NCBI GenBank assembly: GCA_034421015.1
Contig: DAOUKT010000037.1
Span: forward strand, 18,133-82,132
Source of the DNA: Dehalococcoidia bacterium
GTDB taxonomy: Bacteria > Chloroflexota > Dehalococcoidia > Lucifugimonadales > UBA2985
Direction of reading: 5' to 3'
DNA: 64,000 nucleotides
Shown here: in pieces, positions 623 to 54,925 of the stretch
How positions within the stretch are numbered: the stretch's first letter is position 1
Layout of the letters: the number at the start of each line of letters is the position of its first letter
Made by a program: the position numbers and the translations under genes
Notes under the pieces: generated by a model
Told to the model about the DNA's origin: nothing
The model's database searches: none
Seen by the model: only the letters and a program-made list of their open reading frames with translations

Positions 623-979
623 TGGTGGAGACGGGGGAGAGTCGAACTCCCCGTCCAAAGAGCTCTCCGCTAGAATGTACTACAGGCTTATCCGGTACTT
701 GCTTCTCGCTCCCAGGGGCCCCTACCGGCGCAGGTCCCTTGGGAACCAGCCGATAGATCTTGGTTCCTCCCTATCGGTGTTGGGAGGAGCAGCACCTCGA
801 CTTTATGGCGCCCATGTCCCGCCTTCGAGGAGAGGAGAGGATGGACGTGGCCTGCCTAGTTAGGCGGCCAGTGCGAGTTTCTTCTCGCCAGTTACTTTTT
901 TGCCGCCTGATTAACGAGGTGGACGGCGCCTCGGCCTGCAATCCTGCGAAGTCACCCCCTGTCGAAACCACGCGTCCCC
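623..979 (-). ncRNA. ssrA: tmRNA (transfer-messenger RNA)
   Basis: The minus strand starts GGGGACGCGTGGTTTCGACAGGGGG and ends GGACGGGGAGTTCGACTCTCCCCCGTCTCCACCA (tRNA-Ala-like acceptor/T-arm plus CCA). An internal tag frame reads GGC GGC AAA AAA GTA ACT GGC GAG AAG AAA CTC GCA CTG GCC GCC TAA, giving ..KKVTGEKKLALAA*. Confidence 0.93.
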
Positions 980-20393: not shown

Positions 20394-20960
20394 TTACTCG
20401 GCCTTGGCCGTGACCTCGCGCTTCCACTCCATCTTGCCCTGCTCAAGGAGGTCGTTGCCGTGGGTGTCGTTGACCACGATGACGGGGAAGTCCTCCACCT
20501 CAAGCCTGCGTATGGCCTCCGTGCCCAGGTCGTCGTAGGCGACCACGTCCACCTTCTTGATTGCGCCGGACAGGAATGCGCCGGAGCCGCCAATGGCCCC
20601 GAAGTAGACGGCGTGGTGCTTCACGAAAGCCTCCCGCACCTCTTTGCTCCTGCCACCCTTGCCAATTGCAGCCTTGATCCCAAGCTCCAGCATCCGGGGC
20701 GTGAAGGGGTCCATGCGGTAGGCCGTGGTTGGGCCCGCTGAGCCGATGACGTCGCCGGGGCGCGGCGGCGTGGGGCCGACGTAGTACACAATCTGACCCT
20801 TGAGCTCGAAGGGCGGCTCCTCGCCGTTGTCCACCTGCTCAAGCAGACGCCTGTGGGCCGCGTCCCTGGCCGTGTAGATCACCCCGGTCAGGAGCACCTG
20901 CTCGCCGGCGTTCAGCTCGGCGAGGGCCTCGTCGGTCAGGGGTGTGCTGACTTTCTTCAT
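20394..20960 (-). CDS. Class I (Fe-S) fumarate hydratase, beta subunit (C-terminal domain type)
   Basis: 188 aa: LLTGVIYTARDAAHRRL...GPTPPRPGDVIGSAGPTTAYRMDPF...AIGKGGRS...VYFGAIGGSGA. The neighbouring gene is the alpha subunit. Confidence 0.9.
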   Translation of the reverse strand: MKKVSTPLTDEALAELNAGEQVLLTGVIYTARDAAHRRLLEQVDNGEEPPFELKGQIVYYVGPTPPRPGDVIGSAGPTTAYRMDPFTPRMLELGIKAAIGKGGRSKEVREAFVKHHAVYFGAIGGSGAFLSGAIKKVDVVAYDDLGTEAIRRLEVEDFPVIVVNDTHGNDLLEQGKMEWKREVTAKAE

Positions 20961-20994
20961 TATCTCGTCTCCTCAGAAACCTCTGCCCCCACTT

Positions 20995-21060
20995 TTAGAT
21001 TCCTGCTTCCGCAGGAATGACGGAAAGGGAAGCAGGAATGGCGGGAGGGTAAGCGGGATT
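20995..21060. repeat. Palindromic hairpin unit plus degenerate half-units
   Basis: ATTCCTGC-TTCC-GCAGGAAT at 20999..21018, followed by GCAGGAATGGCGGGAGGGTAAGCGGGATT. Confidence 0.7.
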
Positions 21061-21120
21061 GACTGGTGGGGCAGAAATCAACTGGTAGTGGGATACCGCT
21101 TTGCTTATTCAAGGGTTTCC

Positions 21121-21966
21121 TTAAATCACCGCCGTCTTCTGGCGGGCGCTGTGGCACTGAAGGTTAACGCCTACCGGAAGCGCGGTGATGTGCGTGGGGT
21201 AGGTCTCGATGTTCACGGCCAGGGCCGTCGTCTGGCCGCCCCAGGCTTGGGGACCAATTCCCGTGGCGTTGACGCGCTCCAGAAGCTCCTCCTCCAGCTC
21301 GGCAACCTCCTGGTCGGGGTTGTGCTCGCCGACCTTGCGGAGCAGGGACTTCTTCGCCAGGTACATCACGTACTCCGCGGAGCCCCCAATGCCCACACCG
21401 ACGATCAGGGGAGGGCAGGGGTTGCCGCCGGACTCCTCAATGGCGCGCAGGGTGAAGTCAATCACGCCCTGCTTGCCGTCCCCGGGCCGCAGAATAGCCA
21501 GGCGGCTCATGTTCTCGCAGCCGCCGCCCTTGGGCATCACGGTAATCTTCAGCTGGTCGCCGGGCACTATGTCCGTATGGATAATCGGGGGAGTGTTGTC
21601 GCCGGTGTTGAGGCGGCGGGAGAAGGGCTGACGGACGATGGAGTTCCGCAGGAAGCCGTCCTTGTAGCCGACTCGCACGCCTTCGGCCAGGGCGTCGTTC
21701 AGGTCGCCCCCGGCGATGTGGGCCTCCTGCCCAAGCTCCAGGAACAGCACCGTGGTGCCCGTGTCCTGGCAGAGGGCGATATGTTTCTCCTGGGCGATGT
21801 CGGAGTTCTGGAGGATGATGTCGAGGACGCCCTGGGCCCTGGGAGACTCCTCATCCTGCCGCGCTTTTTTGAGCGCCGTCAGCACGTCCTCCGGCAGGTA
21901 GTAGTTGGCGTCCTGGCACAGGCGCGCCACCGTCTCGGTTATGTCTGATACGTGGATATCCCTCAT
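21121..21966 (-). CDS. Class I (Fe-S) fumarate hydratase, alpha subunit
   Basis: MRDIHVSDITETVARLC...ALCQDTGTTVLFLELG...MPKGGGCENMS...PCPPLIVGVGIGGSAE. Start set at ATG 21966, 4 nt after the mdh stop. Confidence 0.9.
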   Translation of the reverse strand: MRDIHVSDITETVARLCQDANYYLPEDVLTALKKARQDEESPRAQGVLDIILQNSDIAQEKHIALCQDTGTTVLFLELGQEAHIAGGDLNDALAEGVRVGYKDGFLRNSIVRQPFSRRLNTGDNTPPIIHTDIVPGDQLKITVMPKGGGCENMSRLAILRPGDGKQGVIDFTLRAIEESGGNPCPPLIVGVGIGGSAEYVMYLAKKSLLRKVGEHNPDQEVAELEEELLERVNATGIGPQAWGGQTTALAVNIETYPTHITALPVGVNLQCHSARQKTAVI

Positions 21967-21970
21967 TGGA

Positions 21971-22921
21971 CTAGGAACCTCCGGCGGAAGCGGTCCTGCC
22001 GTGCATGACCTCCACAAGCTCCCTGACGGCGCCTGCGGAGTTGTCCAGCGCGGCCCTCTCCTCGGACGAAAGCTGCACCTCGATTATCTCCTCGATGCCC
22101 GCGGAACCCAGCTTGACCGGCACGCCAATGTAGAGGCCGTCTATGCCGTACTCGCCCTGCAGGTAAGCAGCGCAGGGGAGGATTCGCTTCTTGTCCAGGA
22201 TAATGGAGTCCACCATCTGGACCGTGGCGGCAGAGGGCGCGTAGTAGGCGCTTCCGGTCTTCAGCAGGCCGACTATCTCCGCGCCGCCGTCCCTGGTCCT
22301 CTGCACGATTCGCTCCACCGCCTCCTGGGGCATCAGCTTCGAGATTCCGGTGCCTCCGACGGTGGTCGACTCCACCAACGGCACCATCGTATCGCCGTGG
22401 CCTCCCAGCACGTAGGCCTGGATGTCCTCTACGGACGCACTCAGCTCCTGGGCCAGGAAGGTGCGGAAGCGGGCCGTGTCGAGGATACCGGCCATTCCCA
22501 CAACGCGCTCCCGGGGGAAGCGGCTGACTTCAAGACACTGCTGCGCCATGGCGTCCAGGGGATTGGAGACCACGATGATGACGCTGTCCGGCGACTGCTT
22601 CGCCACCTGCTCCGTGACGCCCCCGACAATGTCCATGTTGGTGAAGAGGAGGTCGTCCCTGCTCATGCCCGGCCTGCGGGCCACACCTGCGGTGATTACC
22701 ACCACGTCCGACCCGGCGGTGTCTTCGTAAGAGTTGGTGCCGATTATCTGGCTGTCCGTTCCCAGCACTGGGCCGGACTCCAGCATGTCCAGGGCCTTGC
22801 CCTGGGGCAGCCCCTCTACAATGTCCACCAGGACCACGTCCGCGTAGCCCCGCTCAAATAGACGCTGGGCTGCCGTAGCCCCAACGTTGCCTGCCCCCAC
22901 TACCGTTATCTTCTTGCGCAT
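21971..22921 (-). CDS. mdh: Malate dehydrogenase (LDH-like family)
   Basis: [18 protein letters not shown]...[16 protein letters not shown]...VVSNPLD...[10 protein letters not shown]. Confidence 0.94.
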
Positions 22922-30944: not shown

Positions 30945-32051
30945 TCAGGGCTTCACGTCCCCCAGCGGGATGTTCACGACGCGTCCCGTAGCGGAGGACT
31001 CGCGGACGGCGTCCAGAACCTGCTGGCAGCGATAGCCGTCGTAGAAGTTGGGAGCGGGCGAGACGCCCTCGCGGATGCCGCGGAAGAACTCACGAACCAG
31101 CAGGCGAAAGGGCATGAGGCGGTCGTCCCGGTCGTCTGAGAAGGGTTCCAGCCGCTCCGGGATGGGCAGCTGCGACAGGGCCTCGTCGCCATGCTTGGCT
31201 CCCAGAATAGTCCCGTGGGGCGGCGGGTTGTACCCGTTGCCCGTATGGGGCGTCACCAGAGTGCCGTCCCGCCCGTACATCTCGATGCTGCCGCCCGGCC
31301 CGAAAGAGGCGGTGTTGGCGCCCGTCATGTTGGCCCACCCACCATTCTCGAAGGTCAGGGTGAAGTTGAAGGTGTCGTCCGCGGTGGACTGCACGATGCT
31401 GCCGGAGTCGTCGGTGCGCTCCGGGTAGTGTGTGAACACCCTGCCGGAAGCCGACGTGACCTCGCCAAACCAGTGGCGCAGGCAGTCGATGTAGTGAGAG
31501 CCCAGCGCGCCCAGAAAGCCGCCGCCCAGGTCTGCGTCGTCGCGTTCGGTCATGGGACGGGGCCGAAAGCCGCGCTGGGGGCCGTTTGCGAGCTTCACCA
31601 GGGCCATGTTCAGCGGGCCAAGATAGTCCTCCTCTATAAGCTCCCTGGTGCGCATCCTGCCCGATGCAAAGCGGAACTCGTGTGTGATCATGGCCGTCAC
31701 GCCGGTCTCGCGGGCCTTCTGCAGCATCTCCAGCGCCTGGCCCTGGTTGAGGGCAAAGGGCTTCTCGCAGAGGACGTGCTTGCCGGCGTCCAGGGCCGCC
31801 ATTGTCATGGGGTGATGCAGGTGGACGGGGCTGACGACGCTGACGGCGTCCACGAAGTCCGCTTTCACCATCTCCTCGTAGTCCGTGAAGGCGTGGGGGA
31901 TGCCGAAGCGTTCCGCCGCCTCCTGCGCTCGCTCCGGGCGGCGGGCGCAGACCGCCGTCACCTCGGCCCCCTCCGACTGGAAGCCGGGTATCTGCACCGT
32001 GGTCCCGAAACCCACGCCTATGACTCCGATGCGTACTGGGCTGCTGGTCAT
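30945..32051 (-). CDS. Gfo/Idh/MocA-family NAD(P)-dependent oxidoreductase
   Basis: VRIGVIGVGFGTTVQIPGF...HVLCEKPFAL. Start moved to ATG 32051. Confidence 0.85.
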   Translation of the reverse strand: MTSSPVRIGVIGVGFGTTVQIPGFQSEGAEVTAVCARRPERAQEAAERFGIPHAFTDYEEMVKADFVDAVSVVSPVHLHHPMTMAALDAGKHVLCEKPFALNQGQALEMLQKARETGVTAMITHEFRFASGRMRTRELIEEDYLGPLNMALVKLANGPQRGFRPRPMTERDDADLGGGFLGALGSHYIDCLRHWFGEVTSASGRVFTHYPERTDDSGSIVQSTADDTFNFTLTFENGGWANMTGANTASFGPGGSIEMYGRDGTLVTPHTGNGYNPPPHGTILGAKHGDEALSQLPIPERLEPFSDDRDDRLMPFRLLVREFFRGIREGVSPAPNFYDGYRCQQVLDAVRESSATGRVVNIPLGDVKP

Positions 32052-32300: not shown

Positions 32301-32813
32301 CTATCCGGCCGCCGTCGCACCGGCTTTCTCCTGCTCCTGGCGACGCTGCTCCCGTGACGTGATCAGTCGCACAGCCTCTTCAGCCCCCATGCGACCCACC
32401 GGGCCGGATGCGTACATCGCACCCAGGACCACGCCGCCTCGTCCCAGGAGAAACTCCGCCGGCTGAATGTAGCCGCCGCGGTTCTCGTCCCACCATGCGT
32501 CGATGAGGGCGGCGTCCTCACGCGTAGCGCCGTATGCGATGGGGAAGGAGAGTCCCCTGTCGGCCACTCCCTGCGAATCCTCAAGGCCGCTGGTGCTAAC
32601 GGCGTAAACGGTTGCGCCAAGCTCCTCAAACTCCGCCTTGCGCTCCTCCCATGCGGCTAACTGCCGCTGGCAGTAGCTTCACCAGTGGCCCCGGTAAAAG
32701 AGCAGCGCAACGTAGCGGCTGGACATGTCATCAGGAATGGTGACCTTCTCGCCGCTGACCAGATTCAGCGTGATCGATGGGAACCTGTCACCCTGCTGCA
32801 GTTTCTCACCCAT
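32301..32813 (-). CDS. Peroxiredoxin-like (AhpC/TSA, Prx_like2-type) redoxin with in-frame TGA at the CxxC position; candidate selenoprotein (otherwise a pseudogene)
   Basis: ORFs 32679..32861 and 32301..32567 share one frame, interrupted only by TGA 32679..32681. The joined product reads ...YVALLFYRGHW[TGA]SYCQRQLAAWEERKAEFEELGATVYAVSTSG...GLSFPIAYG. AGGAGGAGAC precedes ATG 32813. Confidence 0.7.
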
Positions 32814-32855
32814 GTCTCCTCCTCTATTATTGTAAGAATGCGATAGACCCGGTTC

Positions 32856-32931
32856 TGGCACGCCCGGAGGGATTCGAACCCCCGACCCTCGGTTCCGAAG
32901 ACCGATGCTCTATCCGCTGAGCTACGGGCGC
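32856..32931 (-). tRNA. tRNA-Arg (anticodon TCG), CCA encoded
   Basis: GCGCCCG-TA-GCTC-AGCGGATA-GAGC-A-TCGGT-CTTCGGA-ACCGA-GGGTC-GGGGG-TTCGAAT-CCCTC-CGGGCGT-G-CCA forms a clean cloverleaf. Confidence 0.92.
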
Positions 32932-53632: not shown

Positions 53633-53716
53633 ACTCCCGCGTAGCCTGCCCCGTACTTTGATACGGGGGCGGGAGTCCACACTCCACCCCCTCTGGATTC
53701 CTCCCTGCGCAGGAAT
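53633..53716. repeat. Palindromic hairpin units, including a nested pair
   Basis: ACTCCCGC[...CCCCGTA-CTTTGA-TACGGGG]GCGGGAGT at 53633..53676, and ATTCCTCC-CTGC-GCAGGAAT at 53697..53716. Confidence 0.8.
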
Positions 53717-53741
53717 GGTTGTGACTTGTTCTCAGAGATTT

Positions 53742-54770
53742 CTACGGCTTGATGATTACCCGCCCGAAGGTCTCCTTGTTGAGCATGGCCCTGTAGGCGT
53801 CCACCGCCTCGTCGAAGGAGTAGCTCTGGGACGCGACAGGGCTGATGTGGCCTTGCTGCACCAGGTCTGCCACCTCCCTGAGCTGCTTGCGCGTCGAGCC
53901 GCCCGTGCCCATGATGTGGGCGTCCCTGAATATGATCTCGGCCGGGTTTATCGCAATCTGGCCCGGCCCTATCGCGCCCACAATGACCATCCTGCCAAAC
54001 TGCCCCAGGCTCCGGAAGGAGCTGTTGAACGTCACGCCGGCCACGTTCTCCACCACAACGTCCACGCCTTCGTCTCCGGTCATGGCCATGACCAGCTCAC
54101 TGAAGTCCAGGTCATCGACCAGCAGCACTTCGTCCGCGCCCGCCTCGCTGAGGCGGTCCATCTTCTCCGGCGACGTGGTCACGGCAAAGACCATCGCGCC
54201 CATCGCCTTGGCAATCTGGATGGAGTGGACGCCCAGCCCGCCGCCTGCGCCTGTGACCAGGGCCCGCTCCCCGGCCCGAAGCCCGGCAACGTCCTTGATT
54301 GCATTAAGGGCCACTCCAATGGGGCAGCTGTACAGGCTTGCGCCGTCCAGGTCCGTGCCCTCCGGCAGCGCGACAAGGGCGTTCTGGTGCAGCTTCACGT
54401 ACTCCGACAGCCCCCCGTCTATCCTGTGGCCGATGCCCCGGCCGTTGACGCATCGCTGCTCCATGCCACGCCGGCACTGGTCGCAGTGGGCGCAGGGCTC
54501 CGTGAAGATGGAGGCCACCGGGTCGCCGACCCTGAACCCATCCACCCCATCGCCAACCTGGGCAACCGTGCCGGAAATCTCGTGGCCCAGGACAACCCTC
54601 TCCTTGACCCCCCGGCGCAGCACCCCCTGCATCACAAGCACGTCGTGGTAGCAGAGGCCGCAGGCGTGGACCTTCACCAGCACGTCGCCGGCCTCCAGGG
54701 CCGGGATGTCCCGCTCCTCAATGGCAAGTCGAGGCGTCTCCCCGGGTTCTTCCAGTACAAGGGCTCTCAT
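53742..54770 (-). CDS. Zn-dependent alcohol dehydrogenase (MDR family)
   Basis: MRALVLEEPGE...VKVHACGLCYHD...GHEISGTV...CAHCDQCRRG...VTGAGGGLGVHSIQIAK. Start at ATG 54770, behind GAGGTGA. Confidence 0.9.
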   Translation of the reverse strand: MRALVLEEPGETPRLAIEERDIPALEAGDVLVKVHACGLCYHDVLVMQGVLRRGVKERVVLGHEISGTVAQVGDGVDGFRVGDPVASIFTEPCAHCDQCRRGMEQRCVNGRGIGHRIDGGLSEYVKLHQNALVALPEGTDLDGASLYSCPIGVALNAIKDVAGLRAGERALVTGAGGGLGVHSIQIAKAMGAMVFAVTTSPEKMDRLSEAGADEVLLVDDLDFSELVMAMTGDEGVDVVVENVAGVTFNSSFRSLGQFGRMVIVGAIGPGQIAINPAEIIFRDAHIMGTGGSTRKQLREVADLVQQGHISPVASQSYSFDEAVDAYRAMLNKETFGRVIIKP

Positions 54771-54925
54771 GGCAGCTTTCACCTCGCATTCATCAGCGAA
54801 AAGTCGTTGGTACACCAGCATAGCACATCTCACAGGGCGAAGAGTCGCCGCGCCCTTCGATTCGGGTCGGAGTCGTACTATAATGGGGCCACACTTGGAC
54901 CACCGACCACAAAGAAGGAGGCGCC

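Follow-up and report, generated by a model that had tools for sequence, protein, structure and literature searches.

Background

Prx-like thiol:disulfide oxidoreductases with a selenocysteine (Sec, U) in a UxxC motif (pfam00578) have been known as a selenoprotein family since 2004-2008. They were first found in Geobacter and other Deltaproteobacteria, and were named 'Prx-like protein' in the Sargasso Sea survey and 'Prx-like 1' in the GOS survey; an earlier note on the DNA described here was thus correct in its caveat that Sec-containing Prx-like families are known from marine metagenomes. The RNA signal for Sec insertion can be compared with that of E. coli, whose minimal SECIS is a stem-loop (nt 15-31) that begins 11 nt after the UGA and has G23 and U24 in its loop (PMC8659212). 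The marine Chloroflexota lineage is already listed as selenoprotein-rich: BSepDB, which admits species with at least 2 of SelA, SelB and SelD, lists the genome of one relative of the present bacterium (L048) with 46 selenoprotein genes. A literature search gave no paper combining a selenoprotein with SAR202, and the work of Mukai et al. 2017 on Dehalococcoidia concerns SepRS, not UGA.

The gene and its reading frame

The window, meaning the whole 64-kb stretch of DNA that was analysed, contains two small minus-strand ORFs that are a single 170-codon gene for a peroxiredoxin-like redox protein. Its main features are:

32301..32813, minus strand: complete CDS of the predicted selenoprotein (170 codons and a TAG stop); the product is an AhpC/TSA (Prx-like) protein of Trx fold whose redox motif is U45-S-Y-C48
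32679..32681, minus strand: in-frame TGA, codon 45, the presumed selenocysteine codon (from conservation, Cys alignment and the proxy model)
32670..32672, minus strand: TGC codon of Cys48, the presumed partner (resolving) Cys of UxxC, an invariant Cys in 81/81 sequences
32818..32823, minus strand: Shine-Dalgarno AGGAGG, with 4 nt between it and ATG 32813, by direct reading of the sequence

The earlier note had placed the ORFs 32679..32861 and 32301..32567 in one frame with the TGA alone interrupting it. Translation of the minus strand from 32861 to 32301 confirms this, giving one frame whose sole internal stop is the TGA at 32681..32679 and which ends in TAG (32303..32301). The joined product proposed in that note is matched exactly from ATG 32813 (MGEKLQQGD...FYRGHW-U-SYCQRQL...), and the strong Shine-Dalgarno sequence that it described before this ATG was found as AGGAGG at 32823..32818. 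The start given in the ORF list, GTG 32861, sits within the upstream tRNA-Arg; homologues begin MGEKLQQGD, which places the true start at ATG 32813.

With C written for U, the product matches Pfam PF00578 (AhpC-TSA) with an E value of 2.7e-17 and 63.3 bits (cutoff 26) over residues 8-129, a match that spans the TGA, and Pfam Redoxin likewise matches across it (E 1.8e-09); codon 45 falls inside the AhpC/TSA domain. A six-frame scan of the 64 kb gave just two TGAs with coding potential on both sides, codon 45 and one at 30947, the latter being an ordinary gene junction rather than a second embedded TGA. The gene neighbourhood is kept in the six closest relatives only, and synteny offers no functional clue.

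Conservation of the TGA codon

The TGA is present at codon 45, in the same gene architecture, in 80/80 GTDB species-representative genomes, which are species-level, mostly of Dehalococcoidia / SAR202 type, and 60-87% identical to the window protein. It is also present at codon 45 in 75 of 80 marine metagenome loci, collected in a search that was seeded with Cys-type proteins. The earlier note had considered that close relatives might have TGC at this codon and no conserved hairpin; what they carry is TGA, followed by a conserved RNA element. More distant homologues of the Cys type have Cys at the TGA column (W-C-P-Y-C), exactly where that note had the TGA replacing the nucleophilic Cys of a CxxC motif, and the Sec and Cys forms interleave within the family. 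A codon alignment reveals purifying selection on the protein sequence on both sides of the TGA. The comparative data support the view from which the analysis began, of a candidate UxxC selenoprotein split into two ORFs.

RNA-level constraint after the UGA

Judged from the aligned genes, the RNA downstream of the TGA is under selection that is specific to TGA genes. The region concerned is:

32655..32678, minus strand: suppressed synonymous variation over codons 46-53 (codon entropy, observed vs expected)

Observed codon entropy is 0.28 against an expected 2.04 at R50, 0 against 0.82 at Q51 and 0.29 against 1.77 at A53, while L52 is encoded by TTG or TTA only. The constraint does not extend beyond codons 46-53. 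Outside them, the synonymous sites of invariant residues are free to vary; upstream of the TGA, P12, P27, Y34, R41 and G42 are 100% conserved and use 2-4 codons each. A CAGTT core occurs in 107/109 unique Sec-type genes vs 0/6 Cys-type genes encoding the same residues (Fisher p 1e-8), with Leu52 written TTR in the Sec genes and CTN in the Cys genes; in the one variant gene with TCA (Ser) in place of TGA (L120), the hairpin described below is lost. The folding energy of the wider region of 71 nt is unremarkable for its GC content (z -0.49), and the case therefore rests on comparative data. No Rfam family for SECIS or tRNA-Sec gave a match, either at gathering thresholds or, over 32560..32760, at E <= 10, the matches to mir-647 and fiv_FSE being due to chance.

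Two mutually exclusive hairpins can be drawn in this region, designated A and B:

32653..32667, minus strand: hairpin B, the best-supported SECIS core, a 5-bp stem G-CGGC / GCCG-C that starts 11 nt after the UGA
32642..32681, minus strand: the UGA and the next 37 nt, which form one long interrupted hairpin here, with hairpin B at its apex
32656..32677, minus strand: hairpin A, the hairpin of the earlier note

Hairpin B has the loop AGUUA at 32658..32662, with an invariant G at 32661 and U at 32660. Across the relatives it takes the form CGGC-AGUUR-GCCG, with 95.5% of cells paired, a value reached by 0/500 shuffles. Its pair 15-29 covaries (GC 52, UA 14; in the larger set GC 53, UA 14, CG 13), and its apical 3 pairs are paired in 99/99 sequences of the larger set. 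Where Arg50 is encoded by CGC, the pairing moves to a different register that compensates for it and closes a tetraloop, for example GACGCC-AGUU-GGCGUC. The third position of Ala53 is frozen (GCC in 76/79), and hairpin B is the only helix that explains it. The stem is short, with a lower extension that relatives do not conserve, and hairpin B appears in the MFE structure of 54/81 sequences. In the window, the whole of 32642..32681 folds with a dG of -20.0 kcal/mol (z -3.57), and 0/200 shuffles fold as well.

The SECIS-like hairpin A does fold as the earlier note described, with 9 bp and one bulged U (dG -10.7 kcal/mol, z -2.6), but it lacks the covariation that the comparative data give to hairpin B. 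Across relatives it is 81.9% paired, a value equal to that of shuffles, and no compensatory change was found in it when it was tested as drawn; the compensatory changes that had been suggested as a check of the downstream RNA are present in hairpin B instead. The 5' arm of hairpin A consists of the conserved Tyr-Cys codons, which fix it, and 4 bp of it also form in 3/6 Cys-type genes. The helix under selection is displaced by about 10 nt in the 3' direction and shares sequence with the 3' arm of hairpin A, which is probably an incidental or competing fold. RNAalifold prefers a small ACUGC/GCAGU helix, returning only the 5-bp core of hairpin A, so that the methods do not all agree on which hairpin would bind SelB.

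It is tentatively suggested, at somewhat less than even odds, that the marine Dehalococcoidia / SAR202 clade has a minimal, lineage-typical SECIS, a 5-bp GC stem that begins exactly 11 nt downstream of the UGA and is capped by AGUUR (or by AGUU where the register is shifted). Its sequence would be frozen across more than 100 species and lie outside all Rfam SECIS models. Within the family, an unrelated hairpin would have taken its place on at least one occasion (L087), and genes that changed to Ser or Cys would have lost it. Should SelB in this lineage recognise nothing beyond an xGUx loop on a short stem, these genes would offer a compact and well-sampled set of natural sequences from which to define SelB-SECIS specificity in an aerobic marine phylum rich in selenoproteins.

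Sec machinery and other readings of the codon

A tRNA-Sec was not found in the 64-kb window (by ARAGORN) or in the 80 loci, nor were selA, selB or selD found in either. The G1 motif of EF-Tu/SelB did not occur in the six frames of the window, and NCBIfam models applied to the 20 window ORFs of a size compatible with SelA or SelD returned housekeeping genes only. No second selenoprotein candidate emerged from about 540 kb of window plus flanks; a relaxed scan for redox motifs gave 50 hits, all of them to the target gene. The sole candidate from a strict scan of the loci for coding potential was a radical-SAM gene junction (in L035), which was rejected.

That the Sec machinery was not found within the 64-kb window would suit a SelB-independent read-through, in which the downstream structure helps a near-cognate tRNA (for Trp, Cys or Arg) to decode the UGA at some frequency, giving a WxxC, CxxC or RxxC product without selenium. 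UGA-C is a leaky termination context, and C follows the UGA in most relatives; in the window, however, the base after the UGA is A. A Cys at this column in homologues is what marks Sec/Cys pairs; the geometry of the hairpin and its invariant loop G-U match a SelB-binding SECIS, and the relative with 46 selenoproteins is catalogued as Sec-utilising. Read-through without selenium is for these reasons considered improbable.

Public databases mostly present the locus as a fragment. Records of 113-119 aa make up 99 of the best 120 database matches, the NCBI entries including 'redoxin domain-containing protein' and 'hypothetical protein' of SAR202 bacterium, while other public records put W at the active site where the TGA stands. 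These gene calls of C-terminal fragments in relatives are what would be expected if the locus made two products, an N-terminal peptide of 44 residues and a C-terminal fragment with a start of its own. The fragments of the relatives, though, start at TTG Leu52, inside the hairpin loop, and in the window Leu52 is TTA, which is no start, the next being a GTG 38 codons downstream; a split here would also break the Trx fold within the motif of its active site. Two products are accordingly very improbable.

A pseudogene or a sequencing or assembly error, by which TGC became TGA in a redoxin gene of the Cys type that is dead or was mis-read, needs only a single nucleotide change and might be expected in a window taken from a metagenome assembly, but on the comparative data it is already refuted by the occurrence of the same TGA in independent genomes (80/80) and metagenome loci (75/80), by purifying selection on both sides and by the TGA-specific RNA element that follows.

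TGA serves as an ordinary stop elsewhere in this DNA. It ends 19 of the 64 greedy ORFs in the window, including ctpA, which the earlier note had rightly given as an example; the ORF that can be assigned to the position of its other example, nuoJ, ends in TAG. The genes ctpA, pepA, hisZ and hisD all end in TGA, with family alignments that run to the end of the profile, and 14/81 genes of the redoxin family itself end in TGA. The genome is therefore not recoded, and a genome-wide reassignment of TGA to sense (Trp or Gly, tables 4 and 25), to which JGI gene calls with W at codon 45 (P0001, P0002) might point, is already refuted for the window by these well-aligned terminators, by the single TGA embedded in coding sequence across 64 kb and by locus L081, where the codon is TGA and does not give the JGI product under code 11.

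Proposed decoding and function

The direct observations (one frame with its domain, a conserved TGA, U aligned with Cys, an RNA under selection and a covarying hairpin) are best read together as one live gene for a Prx-like oxidoreductase of about 170 residues, with the active-site UGA at codon 45 decoded as selenocysteine; we put the probability of this reading at about 0.92. The inserted residue is very probably Sec. With the UGA in the ribosomal A site, the hairpin 11 nt downstream would stay folded at the mRNA entrance. Folded in this way, its G-CGGC / GCCG-C stem and AGUUR loop would recruit SelB.GTP.Sec-tRNASec, which would out-compete release factor 2 at the UGA; by analogy with known SECIS elements, hairpin B is the presumed SelB-binding site.

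The protein is predicted to be a cytoplasmic AhpC/TSA protein of thioredoxin fold. A natural Cys homologue (P0010) served as proxy for the window protein in structure modelling, and its model (pLDDT 91.3) has a Prx/BCP fold in which residue 45 caps the N-terminus of helix 46-57. The top PDB matches of this proxy are Bcp4, Prx6 and AhpC (TM 0.75-0.82), the best being 3hjp (TM 0.82, rmsd 2.0 A). The U45-x-x-C48 centre would cap the first helix at its N-terminal end, with Sec as the exposed nucleophile, and Cys48 would resolve by forming a selenenylsulfide with U45, to be re-reduced by a thioredoxin- or glutaredoxin-type system. These catalytic roles of U45 and C48 are presumptive, and the substrates may be disulfides or peroxides.

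The main value of the finding is for annotation, where correct calling restores a full-length UxxC redox enzyme. This enzyme is nearly universal in marine Dehalococcoidia and adds to the picture of the lineage as a heavy user of selenium. The TGA-specific RNA constraint, together with the clean negative control of the Cys-type genes, also makes a worked example for training predictors of SECIS elements and selenoproteins. Knowledge of Sec decoding and of the protein family is unaltered by the gene, whose novelty we rate as low, with high confidence.

Comparison with known systems

The element after the UGA partly resembles the 40-nt fdhF-type SECIS of E. coli. Both lie directly 3' of the UGA, have an upper stem-loop from nt 15 (11 nt after the UGA) and an invariant G-U in the loop, and the first 40 nt here likewise form one interrupted hairpin. 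Hairpin B differs in occupying nt 15-29 with a 5-bp stem, vs 6 bp plus a bulged U17 in E. coli; its 5' arm has no bulged U, and in the window it is an A on the 3' side that bulges. Its loop is a pentaloop AGUUR or a tetraloop AGUU, with the G-U at nt 21-22 (107/109) rather than 23-24.

Among solved structures the best sequence match is ResA / TlpA (PDB 4nmu), at low identity (E 1.3e-5). The W-C-K-P-C of ResA aligns with W-U-S-Y-C here, placing U on the N-terminal nucleophilic Cys of ResA; ResA and TlpA are membrane-anchored or extracytoplasmic, whereas the window protein has no N-terminal hydrophobic segment. The best structural match of the Cys-type proxy model is instead BCP / PrxQ (Sulfolobus Bcp4, PDB 3hjp), in which the peroxidatic position corresponds to Cys48, so that this residue aligns both with the second Cys of the ResA/Trx CxxC and with the peroxidatic Cys of Bcp4. 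The canonical Prx motif PxxxTxxC is absent from the corresponding Y-R-G-H-W-U-S-Y-C, which has Arg41 at the Pro position and U45 at the Thr position; with this Pro and Thr missing, a canonical peroxidase mechanism cannot be assumed. The Sec-containing Prx (TxxU) belong to the same superfamily, share the Pfam domain and are also marine selenoproteins, but there Sec replaces the peroxidatic Cys, while here it lies three residues upstream (UxxC) and the peroxidatic position stays Cys.

The closest system is the UxxC Prx-like family itself, with which the gene shares the Pfam domain and the thioredoxin-like UxxC in place of the TxxU of Prx; in both, Cys homologues are abundant, marine occurrence is common and the UGA is followed by a stem-loop that has a G in its small apical loop. 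By the domain-plus-motif definition of the reviews, it is a genuine, ordinary member of this known selenoprotein family as far as its sequence can tell. The clade described here differs from that family in belonging to aerobic-type marine Dehalococcoidia / SAR202, vs anaerobic Deltaproteobacteria, and in having a strongly conserved SECIS sequence of its own.

Structure of the split gene

The two small minus-strand ORFs that the earlier note joined into one gene, 32679..32861 (60 aa) and 32301..32567 (88 aa), are exactly those in the mechanical ORF list, and translation of 32861..32301 (minus strand) shows only one internal stop.

32813..32301, minus strand, AhpC/TSA (Prx-like) redoxin gene
32681..32679, minus strand, in-frame TGA (codon 45, U45)
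32303..32301, minus strand, terminal stop TAG, from translation
32856..32931, minus strand, tRNA-Arg(TCG) gene

The 170-residue product, with Cys at the TGA, matches Pfam AhpC-TSA (E 2.7e-17) and also Redoxin (E 1.8e-09), in both cases across the TGA. A six-frame scan of the window found just two TGAs with coding potential on either side, this codon and the one at 30947; the latter (30945..30947, minus strand) was rejected as a recoding site, being a junction between the stop of a Gfo/Idh/MocA-type oxidoreductase gene and the start of the next gene, MEITPGVHRIEN, 6 codons on in the same frame. The single frame, the domain lying across the TGA and the six-frame scan together confirm the joined gene as an observation and exclude a chance alignment of ORFs. 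The proposed start, ATG 32813, also stands, with AGGAGG four bases upstream and the same N-terminus, MGEKLQQGD, in full-length relatives; GTG 32861 lies inside the tRNA-Arg gene and was discarded. Synteny of this tRNA gene, which lies 42 nt 5' of the ATG and on its strand, extends to the six closest relatives (loci L006-L009, L012 and L016), and a tRNA-Gln takes its place in another subclade (L002, L010, L013).

The codon at the Sec position in relatives

A protein search returned 698 homologues, and 99 of the best 120 are C-terminal fragments of 113-135 aa with 64-91% identity, the footprint of gene callers, since calling stops at the TGA. The U column is occupied by C, W or S in full-length homologues. 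The W of one JGI call (locus L081) is a TGA read under a TGA=Trp model, and the S of protein P0006 is a genuine TCA codon (L082). In the DNA of 80 loci from GTDB species representatives, nearly all Dehalococcoidia, SAR202 or other Chloroflexota MAGs, with one Entotheonellaceae and one Caldilineales, the choice between TGA and TGC left open by the earlier note falls to TGA at the identical codon in 80/80, within FYRGHW-TGA-xYC-xRQLA. A scan of metagenome contigs, seeded on purpose with Cys-type proteins, gave 80 further loci, with 75 TGA, 2 Cys and 1 Ser gene.

Genome-wide recoding of TGA is ruled out by its use as a normal stop, as had been claimed: it ends ctpA, pepA, hisZ, hisD and other window genes, whose family alignments run to the profile end, and it is the terminal stop in 14 of 81 family genes. 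A pseudogene is likewise excluded, as is a sequencing error, which eighty independent genomes could not share.

TCA, one base from TGA, occurs at this column in two genes (L120:424-460 and L082:203-260). The downstream hairpin is lost in L120, with Leu CTA and Ala53 changed to Ser; in L082, a 755-bp contig, it is still intact, so that the TCA may have arisen recently or may come from a sequencing error.

Selection on protein and RNA

In a codon alignment of 81 genes, L5, Q7, P12, P27, Y34, R41 and G42 are 98-100% conserved and use 2-4 codons each; residues conserved while codons vary indicate in-frame translation of the first 44 codons together with the remainder of the gene. Loss of synonymous variation is limited to codons 46-53.

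Codon use and codon entropy (bits, observed vs. expected) 3' of the TGA
Pro46: 0.61 vs. 1.71
Arg50: CGG 77, CGC 4; 0.28 vs. 2.04
Gln51: CAG 81/81; 0 vs. 0.82
Leu52: TTG 66, TTA 15, CTN never; 0.69 vs. 2.02
Ala53: GCC 76/79; 0.29 vs. 1.77

CTG is dominant in the other Leu columns, and the invariant P118, G127 and R141 elsewhere in the protein have entropies near expectation. The CAGTT core is present in 107/109 unique Sec-type segments vs. 0/6 Cys-type genes (Fisher p 1e-8); the latter encode the same C-P-Y-C-x-R-Q-L residues, with CTC, CTA or CTG at Leu52 in 6/6. The nucleotide freeze is linked to the TGA and not to the protein, because the Cys-type genes and likewise the Ser gene L120 are without the RNA element.

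The downstream hairpin

The earlier note looked for a hairpin in the right place, directly 3' of the TGA, but the helix it drew is probably not the selected one; the helix under selection is probably a second hairpin, about 10 nt further 3', and the two are mutually exclusive.

32667..32653, minus strand, second hairpin (B), alignment columns 15-19 paired with 25-29, loop columns 20-24

The helix originally drawn (32677..32656; columns 5-13 with 17-26) does fold in the window (dG -10.7, z -2.6). Among relatives it is 81.9% paired with no double-sided change, equal to the shuffled control; its 5' arm is built from the conserved Tyr-Cys codons, in which a synonymous change between C and U leaves the pairing with G intact, and half of the Cys-type genes form four of its base pairs as well. 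RNAalifold returned only its 5-bp core, without covariation.

Hairpin B is 95.5% paired, values that 0/500 shuffles reached, with pair 15-29 changing from G-C to U-A in 14 distinct sequences, and it is contained in the MFE fold of 54/81 sequences vs. 15 for the other helix. Pooling gave 99 unique sequences in the pentaloop register, of which 99/99 form the three apical pairs and 85/99 form pair 16-28, while pair 15-29 occurs as three Watson-Crick types (GC 53, UA 14, CG 13). Where Arg50 is CGC, not CGG, the hairpin adopts a tetraloop register, and its 3' side has changed to match, e.g. GACGCC-AGUU-GGCGUC. Hairpin B alone accounts for Ala53 being frozen as GCC.

Counting the U of UGA as nucleotide 1, hairpin B occupies nt 15-29 with an invariant loop G21-U22; in the minimal SECIS of E. 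coli the stem-loop covers nt 15-31, at a distance of 11 nt from the UGA, and SelB contacts loop G23/U24 and the bulged U17 (PMC8659212). In the window hairpin B extends to 8 bp (32670..32649; dG -12.0, z -3.9), and the 40 nt from the UGA form one interrupted hairpin (dG -20.0, z -3.57) whose lower part is not conserved. The Rfam SECIS families gave no match in the region.

SECIS turnover and Sec/Cys exchange

Cys-type P0005/L166 and P0010 are nearer to Sec-type genes than to the remaining genes of the Cys type, and Sec-type L087 (430-470, contig Ga0209515_10190457) falls inside the Cys clade, with 82% identity to Cys-type L167. L087 is without the CAGTT core and has, 24 nt after the UGA, a perfect, textbook-like 7-bp hairpin, CCUGGUA-GGC-UACCAGG, unrelated to hairpin B, which looks like an independent SECIS solution within the same protein family. 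Two other Sec-type loci, L128 and L129 (identical in the segment of ~60 nt after the TGA), show a third arrangement, with Leu52 as CTA, no hairpin B, and a different structure, with a GUA triloop, that begins directly 3' of the UGA. Taken together, these observations indicate that within a single family Sec and Cys have been exchanged repeatedly and SECIS elements have turned over, a pattern that agrees with published views of dynamic Sec evolution.

The protein

Among solved structures ResA (4nmu) is the best sequence match, its W-C-K-P-C aligning with W-U-S-Y-C; the Thr and peroxidatic positions of Bcp4 (3hjp) align to U45 and C48. A model (pLDDT 91.3) of P0010, the nearest of the natural Cys homologues with the same length, served as structural proxy; in it residue 45 caps the N-terminus of helix 46-57, and it superposes on BCP/PrxQ, Prx6 and AhpC structures with TM 0.75-0.82. 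Unlike the canonical Prx signature PxxxTxxC, the window protein is missing the Pro and Thr. Given the Prx-like model, the ResA-type motif alignment and these missing residues, the predicted protein is a thioredoxin-like UxxC motif on a Prx scaffold. By the established chemistry of CxxC/UxxC Trx-fold proteins, Sec would make the nucleophilic attack, with Cys48 as the resolving residue. No N-terminal hydrophobic segment was found in the window protein, so it is presumably cytoplasmic. A Grx-fused pyridine-nucleotide disulfide oxidoreductase lies directly upstream of Cys-type P0052 (L169:1-279) and could be what reduces the family physiologically.

Genomic context and Sec machinery

Gene content marks the window as a housekeeping region (tmRNA, ctpA, an icd-like gene, pepA, rsmH-ftsA-ftsZ, secF, hisZDC, cca), with a probable nuo operon placed by position and ORF sizes. 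Its FtsZ is identical to one encoded on a 187-kb ENA metagenome scaffold, the probable source of the window.

623..979, minus strand, tmRNA gene (ARAGORN; Rfam RF00023, 164.8 bits; tag peptide GEKKLALAA)
20944..22861 and 53658..54929, plus strand, longest ORFs with third-position GC of 0.65-0.67 vs. ~0.8 elsewhere

These two ORFs have no NCBIfam match, and base composition in both regions is normal; they may be shadow ORFs over real genes, or lineage-specific genes. The 64-kb window contains no tRNA-Sec and no SelB-type GTPase motif, selA and selD were absent from the 20 size-compatible window ORFs scanned, and the loci hold no Sec machinery either. No further selenoprotein genes were found in the flanks, so the flanks lend the Sec reading no independent support; one candidate, L035:1-1822 (minus strand), was a false positive, a radical-SAM gene's TGA with the next gene's start six codons later in frame.

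Comparison with known selenoprotein families

We put the probability that the UGA is a Sec codon at about 0.92. The gene is a real selenoprotein gene with the look of an expressed one, and annotation pipelines either split it or mistranslate it: public calls are mis-handled for L081:841-1338 (JGI Ga0643907_0218272, with W at the TGA), P0001, P0002, P0042 and P0077, and at NCBI the gene appears as 116-aa fragments under the names 'redoxin domain-containing protein' and 'hypothetical protein BZY87_04110 [SAR202 cluster bacterium]'. Its main worth lies in annotation and in a clean SECIS-covariation data set. A literature search found no paper combining 'selenoprotein' with 'SAR202'. That Sec-containing Prx-like families were already known from marine metagenomes is borne out by the GOS survey, whose entry 'Prx-like 1, pfam00578, UxxC' lists 225 Sec sequences and 2,740 Cys homologues, and by the reviews' domain-plus-motif definition the window gene is classed as a Prx-like UxxC family member. 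The Dehalococcoidia are already covered by BSepDB (2026), in which a species is entered only if it has two or more of SelA, SelB and SelD, and which assigns 46 selenoprotein genes to 'Dehalococcoidia bacterium 10f4566d-ab44-49ae-b774-fc9f760c6436', the genome of L048, and 49 to Dehalococcoidia UBA1141; these entries are indirect evidence for Sec machinery. The window gene adds a member to a family already known, in a lineage whose richness in selenoproteins has already been catalogued.
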